The notes below the pieces were generated by a model. The model ran no database searches. It saw only the letters and a list, made by a program, of their open reading frames with translations, and had not been told where the DNA came from. 64,000 nt of DNA, from the sequence record MZ681930.1. One strand, written 5' to 3'. Each line of letters starts with the position of its first letter. The first letter of the stretch is position 1. The stretch comes from Enterobacteria phage phiC600P9. Shown in pieces: positions 22,872 to 28,294 of the stretch. The translations under genes and the position numbers were made by a program.

Positions 22872-23161
22872 TCAGTCTCCAATTTAATGTTCATAATTCT
22901 AGCGTATGATTGTGCCATCTCCGCGCCTCGTTCTATACATTCAAAATCAGAAGAGCACGGGTCATTTTTATAGGTCGTTCTCATAAAACTATAGAATTGT
23001 TCAGACGATTCTACGCTTTTATTTTCAAAAAGCATATAAACGTGTCTAATACCAGATTCCATAAATTTATCAAAATGAGGATCGACATTCGCTTCAATCG
23101 ATGGAGATAAAACAAATGACAATCCTAGCATGGCAAATAGTGCCGTTGCTTTTAAGGCCAT
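22868..23161 (-). CDS. rI: Lysis inhibition regulator rI (antiholin)
   Basis: 97 aa; N-terminal signal-anchor MALKATALFAMLGLSFVLSPSIEA; matches T4 RI from memory. Confidence 0.85.
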   Translation of the reverse strand: MALKATALFAMLGLSFVLSPSIEANVDPHFDKFMESGIRHVYMLFENKSVESSEQFYSFMRTTYKNDPCSSDFECIERGAEMAQSYARIMNIKLETE

Positions 23162-23173
23162 AAAGGCCTCCTA

Positions 23174-23386
23174 TCATTTTTGCCCTGTATTTACTTTATG
23201 CCGATGCACGGCCTTAACTTTATCAAGGTATTTTTCAAAATTTCGCAATCTAGTATAGTCTGCCGGAGATTGGTTGAGTGATACTTCTCGACGCAAAGCT
23301 GAAATGATATTTCCAACTTCCCTACGAATTTCATCTAATTGAAGAACGGTAAGATTGCGAAGTTGCTTTTCAGTTAATTGTAGCAT
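23174..23386 (-). CDS. Hypothetical protein
   Basis: Track ORF, 70 aa; TATAAATA late motif 26 nt upstream. Confidence 0.5.
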
Positions 23387-23411
23387 ATATACCCCTTTAG
23401 TTAGATAAACC

Positions 23412-23419
23412 TATTTATA
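23412..23419 (-). promoter_or_regulatory. Late promoter motif TATAAATA
   Basis: Exact TATAAATA on the minus strand between tk and ORF 23174..23386. Confidence 0.45.
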
Positions 23420-23428
23420 ACTTTTGCA

Positions 23429-24010
23429 CTAACCAAGCTTTTTAGTTAATTCATTCCAATGTTTTCTACACAAAGAAACATAAATTTCATCACCAATACA
23501 GATTTGATTACCTTCTTTAACTGGTGTTCCATCTTCCATTAATCGAGCTGTCATAACCGCTTTTTTACCGCAATGACAAACTGCCTTTAGTTCAATAAGT
23601 TTATCTGCAATCGCTAAAAGTTCTTTAGAACCTTCAAACAATTTTCCAGCGAAATCAGTCCTTAATCCATAAGCCATAACAGGAACATTATATGTATCAA
23701 CAATTCGGCTCAATTGATGCACCTGTTCAGTTTTTAAAAACTGAGCTTCATCTACAAATACGCAATGAATATCTTTTTGTGCTTCAGCCCATTTATAGAA
23801 CTCGAAAATATCCATATCATCTGTAATAATATTTGCTTCCTGCCTAATTCCAATGCGAGAAACGACTTCACAAACAGAATCGCGAGTATCAATAGCAGGT
23901 TTAAGAACTAATACACCCATTCCACGTTCTTTATAATTATGTGCAGCAGTCAAAAGAGAAGCAGATTTTCCAGCATTCATTGCTGCATAAGTAAAAATTA
24001 AACTCGCCAT
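23429..24010 (-). CDS. tk: Thymidine kinase
   Basis: 193 aa; P-loop NAGKSAS; C-terminal Cys/His zinc motif; matches T4 Tk. Confidence 0.92.
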   Translation of the reverse strand: MASLIFTYAAMNAGKSASLLTAAHNYKERGMGVLVLKPAIDTRDSVCEVVSRIGIRQEANIITDDMDIFEFYKWAEAQKDIHCVFVDEAQFLKTEQVHQLSRIVDTYNVPVMAYGLRTDFAGKLFEGSKELLAIADKLIELKAVCHCGKKAVMTARLMEDGTPVKEGNQICIGDEIYVSLCRKHWNELTKKLG

Positions 24011-24011
24011 T

Positions 24012-24200
24012 TTAATCCTTAGTTAAATTTTCTAAATATGTTTTTAAATCATTTTCAGCTTTATCGATAGATTTTACTAATTCGTAATATGTTTCGGCAT
24101 CTCCATATTCAGAAGATATTTCAAAAGACAAATCCTTTTCTAAACTAATAATTTCACCAACTAAAAATAATATTTCGTTCTTTTGTTCGCGAGTAATCAT
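24012..24200 (-). CDS. Hypothetical acidic protein
   Basis: Track ORF, 62 aa. Confidence 0.45.
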   Translation of the reverse strand: MITREQKNEILFLVGEIISLEKDLSFEISSEYGDAETYYELVKSIDKAENDLKTYLENLTKD

Positions 24201-24382
24201 AAGGAATTTATATAATCAATAAGTTCTTGCTCTTTATCGTCAAAATCTTTACACAGTTCTTCGTATTCGTCAGTATTAAAAGGACCGCATTCATTACAAA
24301 CTTTTTCCAATTCACTATTTTTATCCATAACTTCGTGGATAAGAGAAAAGAGTCTGTCTTTTTGTTCTTTGCTTAGGCTCAT
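24197..24382 (-). CDS. Hypothetical acidic protein
   Basis: Track ORF, 61 aa; similar composition to the adjacent 62-aa ORF. Confidence 0.45.
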   Translation of the reverse strand: MSLSKEQKDRLFSLIHEVMDKNSELEKVCNECGPFNTDEYEELCKDFDDKEQELIDYINSL

Positions 24383-24548
24383 ATATTAATTTCCAGAAGT
24401 TTTAAAATAATTCGCTTTTGCTTAAATATTTCCATAGTTAAATGATCAGTATCTTTTTGACCAATTCCAATGGCAAAACCTTTATTAACAGCGAGTTCAA
24501 TTAAATTATCAAGTTCACGTAACACTTCATATTGTAACTCAGAACTAT

Positions 24549-24761
24549 TCATTTCGGTTTACCTTCTTTAACGAAATCTGGATAAGGATAAAATCCCGAA
24601 TAAAATCCTTCACCTTTATGATTGATGCATCCTTTATTAGAACAATAGCACCAATAATCGAAATCACAAGCCATTTCATCGTTGCATAAAGCAAAAACAA
24701 CCGGCCATTTACACTTTTCACAGTGGGCATTTTTAAGAATACTAGTTTGGCTCATAACCAT
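24549..24761 (-). CDS. Cys-rich small protein (putative zinc-binding)
   Basis: 70 aa with 9 Cys (CEKCKW ... CNDEMACDFDYWCYCSNKGC). Confidence 0.5.
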   Translation of the reverse strand: MVMSQTSILKNAHCEKCKWPVVFALCNDEMACDFDYWCYCSNKGCINHKGEGFYSGFYPYPDFVKEGKPK

Positions 24762-24979
24762 GTCACCTTTAAGCAGTATTCTTCTACATGCTGTTTACGA
24801 CCTTTCTTATCAATAAAGGTATATTCAACGAATGTTCCAATGTAGTCTTTATCTACGTCATGTGGACTATTAATTGGGCATTTAGTACGGCAAATGCGTT
24901 CCCATTGACGAATAATTACTGCCTTATTCTTTGGGTCATATGGATGTGGATAATGTATATTCATAATAATGGTTCCCAA
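24752..24979 (-). CDS. Hypothetical protein
   Basis: Track ORF, 75 aa. Confidence 0.45.
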   Translation of the reverse strand: MGTIIMNIHYPHPYDPKNKAVIIRQWERICRTKCPINSPHDVDKDYIGTFVEYTFIDKKGRKQHVEEYCLKVTWL

Positions 24980-25428
24980 TCAACAATCACAATTTCTAAT
25001 TTAGAGGAATATGTATCTAAAATCCCCTCAATAATATCCCAGTTCCCTTTACCTATGCCTGCACCAATCCTAGGCATATAGATTGTAGGTTTAATCAGTT
25101 TATTTTCACCAAACTCATTTAATTCTAACATACAATTCATTAAAGCGGAATACTCAAAATTTGGCCCTGGTTGAAATTGAGTATAAAGGTTGAAGCAATA
25201 CGCTTTATGAGTCCTAAAGTATTTTTCATAGACTGAGTAAGAACCGAGTTTAGTTACATCACCCCATTCAGTCTGTAATTTATCAGCTTCCAAAATTTTA
25301 GGGAAAGCTTTGGTTAATTGACCCGCTACTCCTGAACCCATAGTATGAAAACAATTGCATCCATGCGCAATATTTTTACCTTCAGCGAAAAGGGCGACAA
25401 TATCGCCCTTGATATATTTTACAATCAT
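24961..25428 (-). CDS. Macro-domain protein (ADP-ribose binding/processing fold)
   Basis: 155 aa; KGDIV ... AHGCNCFHTMGSGVAGQL and PRIGAGIGKG resemble the macro-domain motifs (GDI ... NAAN ... GGGV.GAI; P.IS.G..G); ATG verified. Confidence 0.65.
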   Translation of the reverse strand: MIVKYIKGDIVALFAEGKNIAHGCNCFHTMGSGVAGQLTKAFPKILEADKLQTEWGDVTKLGSYSVYEKYFRTHKAYCFNLYTQFQPGPNFEYSALMNCMLELNEFGENKLIKPTIYMPRIGAGIGKGNWDIIEGILDTYSSKLEIVIVDWEPLL

Positions 25429-25772
25429 CTAGTACTCAATCCTCGATTATAAGAATCTACCAAACGGTCAACCATTGAATGACAAGCGGCTTTATCTTTC
25501 TCCTCCGCAACTGAACATTCTAAAGTATTCCACTTTTTAGCATATCGTTTTAATAATGTATCGTTTTTGTATCTGCTTGATTTATCTCTTTCTCCGTCTT
25601 TATATGCATATATTAATTTCTGCGCAAATTCAGCTTGGCATGCTTTATTTTTCCCACAATAATCTGCCGCAGTGCGATTTACATATTCTCTAATTTCAGT
25701 ATATGATGTATCTGCTGACGCAGAAGCAGAAAATGAAATTAATCCTATACATAAAACCAAAATTTTAGTCAT
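25425..25772 (-). CDS. Secreted/periplasmic protein
   Basis: 115 aa; signal peptide MTKILVLCIGLISFSASASA; four Cys. Confidence 0.5.
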   Translation of the reverse strand: MTKILVLCIGLISFSASASADTSYTEIREYVNRTAADYCGKNKACQAEFAQKLIYAYKDGERDKSSRYKNDTLLKRYAKKWNTLECSVAEEKDKAACHSMVDRLVDSYNRGLSTR

Positions 25773-26310
25773 TTACTATTTCCAAAAGTTTATTATTTTT
25801 AAGGTAATTAGCCTTTTCTAGGACTTCAGAAGCATATTTAGAACCAGCTTTAACATTCCATCCCGAATTATAAGAGGATATTGCTTTTCTTATATCGCCC
25901 TTATGTATATTTAACCAATAAGAAAGTTCAATGTACGCCCAGGAAGCTGAATTGGATCGTTTATTCAACATTCTTTTTATTTCAGCATCGGTCATATTAT
26001 AACCAAGTTCCTTAACTCTCGCTCGCATAGTAGGCAAATAATTTTGGAACATTCCGTAGGCGTGATGCTTTGGTTTAGATTTTAAATTAACTCCGGCAGA
26101 GCTTTCTTGCCATAAAATAGCAGCCATTATATGACCTAATCCGCTTTTGTGGATATTTTTATGTGTTTTATATTTTCCATCCTTAGAAAATTGTTCCCCG
26201 AATTGATACGCGTAACGCATGTTATCGAGTTGGACATTACTGAAAGTATGCTCGGAGCTATGTGCCATCATAGAAATGGCCAATAGACCAGCGAGTAGTG
26301 CTTTTCTCAT
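25765..26310 (-). CDS. Lytic transglycosylase-like protein (SLT domain), secreted
   Basis: 181 aa; signal peptide; ES ... AYGMFQ ... YNSG motifs typical of SLT/lysozyme-like folds. Confidence 0.6.
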   Translation of the reverse strand: MRKALLAGLLAISMMAHSSEHTFSNVQLDNMRYAYQFGEQFSKDGKYKTHKNIHKSGLGHIMAAILWQESSAGVNLKSKPKHHAYGMFQNYLPTMRARVKELGYNMTDAEIKRMLNKRSNSASWAYIELSYWLNIHKGDIRKAISSYNSGWNVKAGSKYASEVLEKANYLKNNKLLEIVND

Positions 26311-26317
26311 GCTTACC

Positions 26318-26779
26318 TCATTGAGTTTTAATTACTGCTTTAGAAGCCTTTCCAGGTAAACGACGACTGTTGATAATTGCCATCCTGCATTGAAGCGACG
26401 GGTCTTTGAACTTCGCATTAGGTTTACAAACTGTAAATCCAAGCCAAAGATTTCCATCTGTGATTTCTAAACGCCCAGGACGATATTCAACCCCATCAAT
26501 AAAATCCTCATCAATGTCAGGACGCGGAGGCATACTCAGGAATTCATTAACTTCTAAAACATGGTCTTTTATTTTATGGAATAATTCAAAAACATATGTC
26601 TCATCAATCTCCCGTTGAATTGCACGATCAAGAAGATGCTGAGAATATTTTAGATGAAACGATGAGACCCCTGCTGCTTTTGATGCCTCACGAATCTCAT
26701 TGTTAATTTGACGAAACTCCGACTCAAAGTGACGACGAAGCTTATTTCGTCGGATAAAAACTTCTGTGTTGATAGTCAT
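26318..26779 (-). CDS. regB: Endoribonuclease RegB
   Basis: 153 aa; MTINTEVFIRRNKLRRHF matches T4 RegB from memory; ATG verified; early promoter upstream. Confidence 0.88.
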   Translation of the reverse strand: MTINTEVFIRRNKLRRHFESEFRQINNEIREASKAAGVSSFHLKYSQHLLDRAIQREIDETYVFELFHKIKDHVLEVNEFLSMPPRPDIDEDFIDGVEYRPGRLEITDGNLWLGFTVCKPNAKFKDPSLQCRMAIINSRRLPGKASKAVIKTQ

Positions 26780-26806
26780 GTTATTCTCCTCTTAACTGAT
26801 AGAAAA

Positions 26807-26836
26807 ATTATACCACAGTCAAGAGGAAAAGTAAAC
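26807..26836 (-). promoter_or_regulatory. T4-type early promoter
   Basis: Minus-sense GTTTACT, 17 nt, TGTGGTATAAT, directly upstream of regB. Confidence 0.65.
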
Positions 26837-26838
26837 AA

Positions 26839-27159
26839 TTATTCTTTAAATCTAATCAATTTATTCATAGACTTTGAAACTTCTGCACGAACCTCATGTA
26901 GGTTTTTGAGCTGTTCAAGACGCTGCTCATAGTAAGCAATTTCATCTTCTTCGAGACAGTCCTGCGAATCTTCTTTAAGATAACGTGCATAGTCCTGGAA
27001 AGCTTTACGGACTACTTCCTGGAAGTCATCAAGACTTTGAATTTTCTTAGGAGCAACAGATACACGACGAGGGGCAGTATAATACTCATAACCAAACCCT
27101 GCGCTTAATTGAGCCATTAATATTTTTCCTCTGGTTGGAACACAGCACGACAAGCCCAC
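26839..27159 (-). CDS. Hypothetical protein
   Basis: Track ORF, 106 aa. Confidence 0.5.
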
Positions 27160-27419
27160 ATACTGGCTTCTTTGAGTTTCGTTTTAGCAATAGTTAACTG
27201 ATCGAGGCTTTCAGCATAATTCTTCGCGAATTCACAGTCTTCACAATTATCTAGTGCTTCCCAAAATTCATCGTATAAAGCATCAAAGATAAGTCCTAAA
27301 CGAACTTCAGCGTCTTTGATAGCATTCACTTTACCGATTTTCTCTTCAGTGTGCGGCTTATAACCCTTAATATCTTCAATCATATTTGACTTCCTCACCA
27401 GTACATAAATCATATTCAA
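27117..27419 (-). CDS. Hypothetical acidic protein
   Basis: Track ORF, 100 aa. Confidence 0.45.
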
Positions 27420-27597
27420 CTAAACGAATAGGTTCATGAATGCCATATCCCTGAACAGAAATTTCTGTCGTGGGATAAATTCCATCAATATCGCCCATAT
27501 TCCACGCTTCATTAAATTGCTGTTCGCCTGAATTACTAAACCATTCGGCGAAAGCATTTAGCACATCTTCAGAACCTTCAATAATTATCTTTGCCAT
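27376..27597 (-). CDS. Hypothetical protein
   Basis: Track ORF, 73 aa. Confidence 0.45.
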   Translation of the reverse strand: MAKIIIEGSEDVLNAFAEWFSNSGEQQFNEAWNMGDIDGIYPTTEISVQGYGIHEPIRLVEYDLCTGEEVKYD

Positions 27598-27959
27598 TAC
27601 AAACTCTCGGTAAAGGTACGAGCGATAACGTCGCGCTGCTGTTCCGGAGTCAGAGAGTTAAAGCGAACTGCATAACCGGATACACGGATGGTCAGCTGCG
27701 GATATTTTTCCGGATGCTTAACTGCATCTTCCAGAGTTTCGCGACGCAGAACGTTAACGTTCAGGTGTTGACCACCTTCAATTTTAACTGTAGGCTGTTG
27801 CTCAATTTCAATTTCACGGGCATGCAAACCATAGAAAATTTCTGGGTCTACAAAAGAGTCCTCTTTAAAGGTTTTAGATACAATAATTCGTGCTTGAATA
27901 CCATCTTCAAAATAAATAGTACCTTTATGTGTGCCTTCAAGAATTTGATATGCTTTCAT
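27597..27959 (-). CDS. Autonomous glycyl-radical cofactor (GrcA/YfiD-like, T4 Y06I-like)
   Basis: C-terminal [59 protein letters not shown] carries the glycyl-radical motif RVSGYA; track start 27971 is TTG, ATG 27959 has SD GAGG. Confidence 0.85.
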
Positions 27960-27967
27960 ATAACCTC

Positions 27968-28294
27968 TCAATTAGAAAATAAATTTATCCAAGATTGTTC
28001 TTTAATTAAAAATGGCTCAGAATCATATGCCATTAAACTCTGTGTGATTAGTCCTTTAAAAGGCCCATCAATAAATTCCATGGTAAAATATGGAATTTTA
28101 TTCATTAGCCGTGCATTAGGAGCAGTGCACAAAACTCTGCATCCTTTGAATACGCCTTTTTGTAATTTGTATTGCTTAGGATAAAATTCGCTTAAAATGT
28201 TATTTTTTGCCAAAATTTCAAAATGATTCACCAATTTATTTTTAATAGTTTTTGGTGAAAAATAAAGATATTCGAAAAGCTGAGTGTCTGTCAT
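27968..28294 (-). CDS. Hypothetical protein
   Basis: Track ORF 27968..28348 shortened to an internal ATG next to the upstream stop. Confidence 0.45.

Follow-up and report, generated by a model that had tools for sequence, protein, structure and literature searches.

The region between the thymidine kinase and vs genes of Enterobacteria phage phiC600P9 contains an open reading frame whose product carries the signatures of a macro domain, which raises the question of what a free-standing ADP-ribose-binding protein does in this part of a T-even genome, and whether the gene is new. We addressed this within a 64,000-nt stretch of sequence record MZ681930.1, hereafter the window. The frame is single, opens with ATG and encodes 155 residues, beginning MIVKYIKGDIVALFAEGKNIAHGCNCFHTMGSGVAGQL and including PRIGAGIGKGNWD. 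The three macro motifs quoted for this product in an earlier note on the DNA, GDIV and two longer segments that form loops 1 and 2 of the putative ligand pocket, were all located at the positions given in the table below; the note had left out that the gene lies on the minus strand.

The gene is T4 tk.4, since renamed adfM (anti-DarT factor, macrodomain), and is already known. Its product is identical to T4 Tk.4 (AAD42667.1) at 155 of 155 residues and lies, as in T4, between tk.3 and vs, so that it is AdfM in the T4 sense by both 100% amino-acid identity and conserved synteny; the two loci differ in the flank, where an insertion of ~370 bp separates tk.2 from tk.3 in the present phage, a close relative of T4. 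The earlier note knew of no macro-domain gene here in T4; its argument for novelty is wrong because the identical Tk.4 occupies that place. Nor does its description of the gene as a candidate for an uncharacterised function hold: an A1pp/macro match had been described for orthologues of tk.4 by 2006 (PMC1524935), genetics under the name adfM followed in 2025, and many GenBank records label the product as a macro domain, Poa1p-like or ADP-ribose-binding protein, among them record MT630408.1 of phiC600P9 (Tequatrovirus), to which the window is 100% identical over 6 kb and where the product is entered as "macro domain protein ... Poa1p_like family". Since the tk.4 nucleotide sequence is present in 647 phage records and T4 itself has the gene, we rejected both chance and a phage-specific insertion as accounts of the frame.

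Features at and around tk.4, with positions in the window
Feature	Position	Strand	Remarks
Thymidine kinase gene	23429..24010		
tk.1	24012..24200	minus	PF24219 (DUF7438)
tk.2	24197..24382	minus	PF24219 (DUF7438)
Insertion relative to T4	24383-24750		~370 bp, between tk.2 and tk.3
Insertion ORF	24379..24552	minus	
Insertion ORF	24549..24761	minus	
tk.3	24752..24964	minus	PF23832 (DUF7202)
tk.4 / adfM CDS	24961..25428	minus	155 aa, one macro domain, no second domain
ATGA overlap, tk.4 stop / tk.3 start	24961..24964	minus	direct sequence reading
W130	25039-25041	minus	next to loop 2
Loop 2, ADP-ribose pocket	25045..25074	minus	P119-R-I-G122-A-G124-I-G-K-G128
N80-L-Y82-T83-Q84	25177..25191	minus	counterpart of DarG/TARG1 TK catalytic motif; Gln replaces catalytic Lys
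D49	25282..25284	minus	invariant Asp, subfamily-specific
Loop 1, ADP-ribose pocket	25324..25365	minus	H22-G-C-N25-C-F-H-T-M-G31-S-G33-V-A35 (HGCNCFHTMGSGVA); conserved Asn + GxG phosphate-binding turn
Hairpin within tk.4	25390-25410		codons 7-13
GDIV motif of tk.4	25396-25407	minus	
ATGA overlap, vs stop / tk.4 start	25425..25428	minus	direct sequence reading
vs	25425..25772	minus	signal-peptide-like N-terminal segment; without Pfam match
Promoter and regB ribosome-binding site	26780-26850	minus	
T4 early-promoter-like site, upstream of regB	26807..26835	minus	GTTTACT, 17-nt spacer, TG-extended TATAAT

Four independent lines of evidence make the product a macro domain, as the earlier note had claimed from its motifs. 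It matches the Pfam Macro family PF01661 with 27.7 bits (gathering cut-off 22, E 2.9e-6) over profile positions 2-113 of 118, and PHROG 335 with 1.3e-65; its sole match in PADLOC is DarG (1.3e-9). A profile built from 60 homologues and compared with solved macrodomains recovered BT1257 (1.5e-17), human TARG1 (1.4e-14), M. tuberculosis DarG (3.1e-14), yeast Poa1p (4.6e-14) and SCO6735 (1.3e-13). Structural comparison shows a three-layer alpha/beta/alpha macro fold whose closest neighbours lie in the TARG1/DarG (ALC1-like) branch; the best Foldseek match is human TARG1, also known as OARD1 (E 1.6e-9). The motifs of the two ADP-ribose-binding loops are intact: loop 1 has the Asn and the GxG, and loop 2 is rich in glycine.

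The function of tk.4 in T4 comes from genetics on hosts carrying the DarTG2 defence. Johannesman and colleagues found that T4 lacking both adfA and adfN (gp30.3, a NADAR) stays fully resistant to DarTG2, and a further factor was therefore predicted (PMC11825919). In November 2025 the HIDEN-SEQ preprint (bioRxiv 10.1101/2025.11.20.689424) reported tk.4 as the single significant hit when a T4 transposon library was grown on a DarTG2 host; a clean tk.4 knockout sensitised T4 to DarTG2, whereupon tk.4 received the name adfM. Its product was found to resemble M. tuberculosis DarG in structure, and the preprint says of an enzymatic release of ADP-ribose from DNA that it "seems likely"; the genetic evidence is that of one preprint, with plaque assays on DarTG2 done at 30 C. 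The literature we searched treats Tk.4 in this preprint, in comparative genomics of 2006 and in a paper on T4 stock variation only, and we found no biochemical assay of T4 Tk.4 there. The earlier note had proposed a probable ADP-ribose eraser with a plausible anti-defence role, naming DarT, in agreement with these genetics.

A second phage protein provides a precedent. Gp104 of PhiKZ, an orphan macrodomain countering DarTG2 that was independently named AdfM in Cell Reports in 2026, removes DarT2's ADP-ribose from DNA in vitro, and its N23A variant shows reduced removal (PMC13309987). N23 of gp104 aligns with N25 of Tk.4. Biochemical proof thus exists for gp104, whereas for Tk.4 we infer hydrolysis. 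The two are distant relatives (a BLASTP match over 23 residues with E 0.005; hhalign probability 96% at 17% identity), while gp104 is a close relative of DarG (E 9e-25 to M. tuberculosis DarG) and retains its FPTK motif. The distance between the two phage proteins and the closeness of one to DarG suggest that phages separately recruited two macro subfamilies against DarT2.

We postulate that AdfM is probably an orphan antitoxin-like hydrolase, that is, a free-standing early macrodomain that removes DarT2 ADP-ribose from thymidine in phage DNA. Made early from the regB-vs.1-vs-tk.4-tk.3 gene chain, it would bind the ADP-ribose placed by the host's DarT2 toxin on thymidines of single-stranded phage DNA and would hydrolyse the base-ribose bond; replicable DNA would be restored and the DarTG2 defence neutralised. 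The protein may be likened to an orphan DarG antitoxin that keeps the enzymatic half and dispenses with the toxin-binding domain. Identity with Tk.4, the DarTG2 genetics, the Pfam and PADLOC matches, a pocket with (near-)invariant residues, the gp104 precedent and the domain fusions described below speak for this proposal. Against it stand the invariant replacement of the TK-motif Lys by Gln, the low score against the NCBIfam DarG model, and a sequence that is no closer to DarG than to BT1257 and the phosphatase Poa1p. We consider these points in turn.

Comparison with DarG was made with the DarG2 macrodomains of T. aquaticus (5M31/5M3E), M. tuberculosis (5M3I) and T. africanus (7OMU). The NCBIfam equivalog NF048014 gives 30.3 bits against a cut-off of 250 and is matched at model positions 2-146 of 338 only. 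On this sub-threshold score we did not class the protein as DarG, and the Tk.4 product, with 155 residues against the 338 positions of the DarG model, is without the C-terminal DarT-binding domain. Human TARG1 (4J5R, 4J5S) has the size and topology of the Tk.4 product and hydrolyses thymidine-ADP-ribose, and TARG1-branch enzymes are those active on this linkage. The TARG1 catalytic pair is nevertheless absent from Tk.4, where K84 is replaced by Q84 and D125 by G126.

We read the roles of pocket residues from profile and MAFFT alignments. Across 259 homologues, loop 1 keeps G23, N25, C26, G33 and A35 without exception and H22, C24, M30 and G31 almost without exception; in loop 2, whose counterpart is PRIGCGL in TARG1 and BT1257 and PPLGxGNGG in DarG, P119, I121, G122 and G124 are invariant and G128 and W130 nearly so. 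The (near-)invariance of N25, G31-x-G33 and P119-x-I-G-x-G in these homologues argues for a working ligand site. The catalytic motif tells a different story from that of DarG and TARG1. Q84 stands opposite K84 of TARG1 in the profile alignment. The MAFFT alignment pairs it with the FPTK Lys of the M. tuberculosis and T. aquaticus DarG proteins and of PhiKZ gp104, and the position holds Gln in all 259 homologues that cover the NxYTQ site. The DarG motif is described as "TK-G-G (K80)" in a review, according to which mutation of K80 inactivates DarG, and DarG too is without the TARG1-type Asp (PMC8120803). An invariant Gln in place of the catalytic Lys means that the chemistry may differ from that of DarG and TARG1; we found no discussion of the replacement in the literature on the gene. 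Besides Q84, the (near-)invariant residues specific to the subfamily are H22, C26, D49 and Y82; position 49 is Asp in 259 of 260 aligned sequences, and BT1257, TARG1, DarG and PhiKZ AdfM have no Asp at the equivalent position.

The replacement of a Lys needed for catalysis by DarG and TARG1, together with the existence of non-enzymatic macro domains such as macroH2A, could point to a non-catalytic reader or shield, which would bind ADP-ribosylated DNA, free ADP-ribose or DarT2 products and so mask lesions, recruit T4 repair or recombination, or titrate the ligand. We regard such a role as quite unlikely. Replicating DNA would carry many lesions, which stoichiometric masking is unlikely to clear; H22, N25, D49 and Q84, all polar and (near-)invariant, look like an active site; and the hydrolase fusions (NADAR, NUDIX) suggest an enzyme. 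SCO6735 of Streptomyces coelicolor (5E3B), a TARG1-branch protein without the Lys/Asp pair, is active on ADP-ribose linked to Glu in protein, to thymidine in DNA and to uracil in RNA, and so offers a precedent for Lys-independent catalysis, although it is distant from Tk.4 in the profile comparison and is the product of a bacterial DNA-damage-inducible gene rather than of a phage. The missing Lys weakens the claim that the protein is DarG, while the same reaction could still be catalysed.

Two other relatives raise the matter of substrate. BT1257 of Bacteroides thetaiotaomicron (2AFC, 2FG1) is uncharacterised, whereas yeast Poa1p (6LFQ-6LFU) is an ADP-ribose-1''-phosphate phosphatase; the identity of each to Tk.4 falls within 23-29%. 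Of the Poa1p residues mutated in solved structures (H23, S30 and F152, from PDB titles), H23 aligns with H22 and S30 with T29 of Tk.4.

Contexts of Tk.4 homologues bear on the same matter. Macro domains of the Tk.4 type, recognised by HGCNC and NxYTQ, occur in fusions of the form macro+NADAR+DUF4326 (P0192), DUF4326+macro (P0255) and macro+NUDIX (P0240). AdfN and DarG1 have the NADAR fold, that of a DNA hydrolase for guanine-ADP-ribose, which reverses guanine ADP-ribosylation. The fusions tie the Tk.4 subfamily to ADP-ribose and NAD chemistry, and since DUF4326 is found both beside and fused to such macro domains (P0255, P0192), it may be another ADP-ribose-related phage module. The macro+NUDIX gene lies on a viral-looking contig (L007:2468-7922), where a CTP_transf_like (NadM-like) gene and an adjoining NAPRTase gene follow 2.4 kb downstream, a gene set that resembles a phage NAD-salvage cluster. 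In two T4-like contigs binned in Cetobacterium and Bacilli MAGs (L003:69-2430 and L004:41-2397), the order is DUF4326, RNA ligase 1, a small ORF, the Tk.4 homologue and a Dda-like helicase, with PNK ~2.5 kb downstream. No DarT gene or other sign of a toxin-antitoxin pair was seen beside Tk.4 homologues in the five contigs examined, which presented phage or virus contexts instead, and in the present phage no darT adjoins tk.4, whose neighbours are vs and tk.3.

From these relatives and neighbours one could argue for a small-molecule enzyme, either a Poa1p-like ADP-ribose-1''-phosphate phosphatase or an O-acetyl-ADP-ribose deacetylase, that cleans up by-products of RNA repair or serves NAD salvage, the DarTG2 phenotype being secondary. 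In its favour are the PHROG label, the H-x-C-N-C loop shared with Poa1p and, in other T4-like contigs, the proximity of RNA ligase and PNK genes. We nevertheless hold it to be unlikely, as a housekeeping phosphatase would not predict a specific, single-hit DarTG2 phenotype. Furthermore, tk.4 does not adjoin rnlA or pseT, either in T4 or within the window, and Poa1p has Ser rather than Gln at position 84 and is without NxYTQ.

A last alternative turns on the phage's own enzymes: AdfM might erase or tune ADP-ribosylation by Alt, ModA and ModB, including RNAylation by ModB, or RNA ADP-ribosylation by defences such as CmdTAC. T4 has three ADP-ribosyltransferases (PMC8120803), TARG1-branch enzymes act also on protein-Glu and on uracil in RNA, and early co-expression is plausible. 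The reported phenotype is, however, specific to DarTG2, and we found no data that connect tk.4 with the targets of Alt or the Mod enzymes. The residue modified by Alt, ModA and ModB is arginine, and macro domains are not known to cleave the arginine-ADP-ribose linkage. As for CmdTAC, T-even phages are sensitive to it although they have tk.4 (PMC11618068). We therefore deem this alternative very improbable, and hydrolysis of thymidine-linked ADP-ribose continues to be our preferred reading.

The layout of the locus fits the early timing that we ascribe to AdfM. Upstream of vs lie vs.1 (SLT domain) and then regB, preceded by a promoter-like site that scores 10/12 in a consensus scan, with the extended -10 TG. 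Downstream of this site the regB, vs.1, vs and tk.4 ORFs follow without a further intergenic gap; the site is likely to be the start of a transcript covering all four, which would give early expression of tk.4. The ATGA in which the vs stop and the tk.4 start overlap suggests translational coupling from vs to tk.4, and a like overlap joins tk.4 to tk.3.

Several other observations were made in the region. The segment upstream of regB reads as the early promoter GTTTACT ... TGGTATAAT followed by the regB ribosome-binding site AAGAGGAG, which includes GGAG, the motif cut by RegB itself according to a T4 GenBank note. A perfect hairpin with an 8-bp stem, AAGGGCGAC AAT ATCGCCCTT, lies inside tk.4. 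On the plus strand a T-rich run comes after it, a terminator-like arrangement (-12.8 kcal/mol, z -3.8), and in the sense direction UUUU comes next; a terminator under tk.4 is annotated in some GenBank records. Antisense or late transcription could terminate at the hairpin, or read-through out of vs could be attenuated there. A search with Rfam at gathering thresholds gave no match in positions 23000-28000, which ruled out an RNA element as an explanation of the locus. On the far side of tk.4, tk.1 and tk.2 are paralogues that each match the same Pfam family, and tk.1, tk.2 and tk.3 are linked through overlapping start and stop codons. The insertion between tk.2 and tk.3 brings two additional small genes, one of 57 aa without a Pfam match and the other of 70 aa, Cys-rich and matching PF23895 'Phage zinc binding domain' (E 2.6e-29); the flanks of the insertion are 96.5-98.6% identical to T4. 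The N-terminal segment of Vs that resembles a signal peptide is MTKILVLCIGLISFSASASA; vs was the T4 gene most strongly depleted in minimal medium in the HIDEN-SEQ preprint (bioRxiv 10.1101/2025.11.20.689424).

ADP-ribosylation of DNA by DarT toxins is widespread as a defence against phages, and the countermeasures of T-even phages are layered: AdfA, AdfN (a NADAR) against modification of guanine, and the AdfM macrodomain against modification of thymidine. Our finding re-identifies an already described gene rather than a new one, and what it still offers is the chemistry of a TARG1-branch macrodomain of the Gln type. As Tk.4 is without the Lys thought essential in DarG, it is a natural and convenient case for testing how base-linked ADP-ribose is cleaved by macrodomains. 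The subfamily around Tk.4 is large, with 1,224 clusters at 50% identity that score E <= 1e-30, and 8,848 that score E <= 1e-10. We put forward, as a tentative and rather doubtful extension, that the T4-type AdfM proteins are a macrodomain subfamily of their own, defined by H-G-C-N-C, the invariant Asp49 and N-x-Y-T-Q with the Lys always Gln. Its members might hydrolyse thymidine-ADP-ribose independently of Lys, having entered phages separately from the DarG-like PhiKZ AdfM, or might have wider or different substrates, such as ADP-ribose-1''-phosphate and RNA- or protein-linked ADP-ribose. If this were true, the recurrent fusions with NADAR, DUF4326 and NUDIX would point to multi-substrate ADP-ribose clean-up modules in phages.
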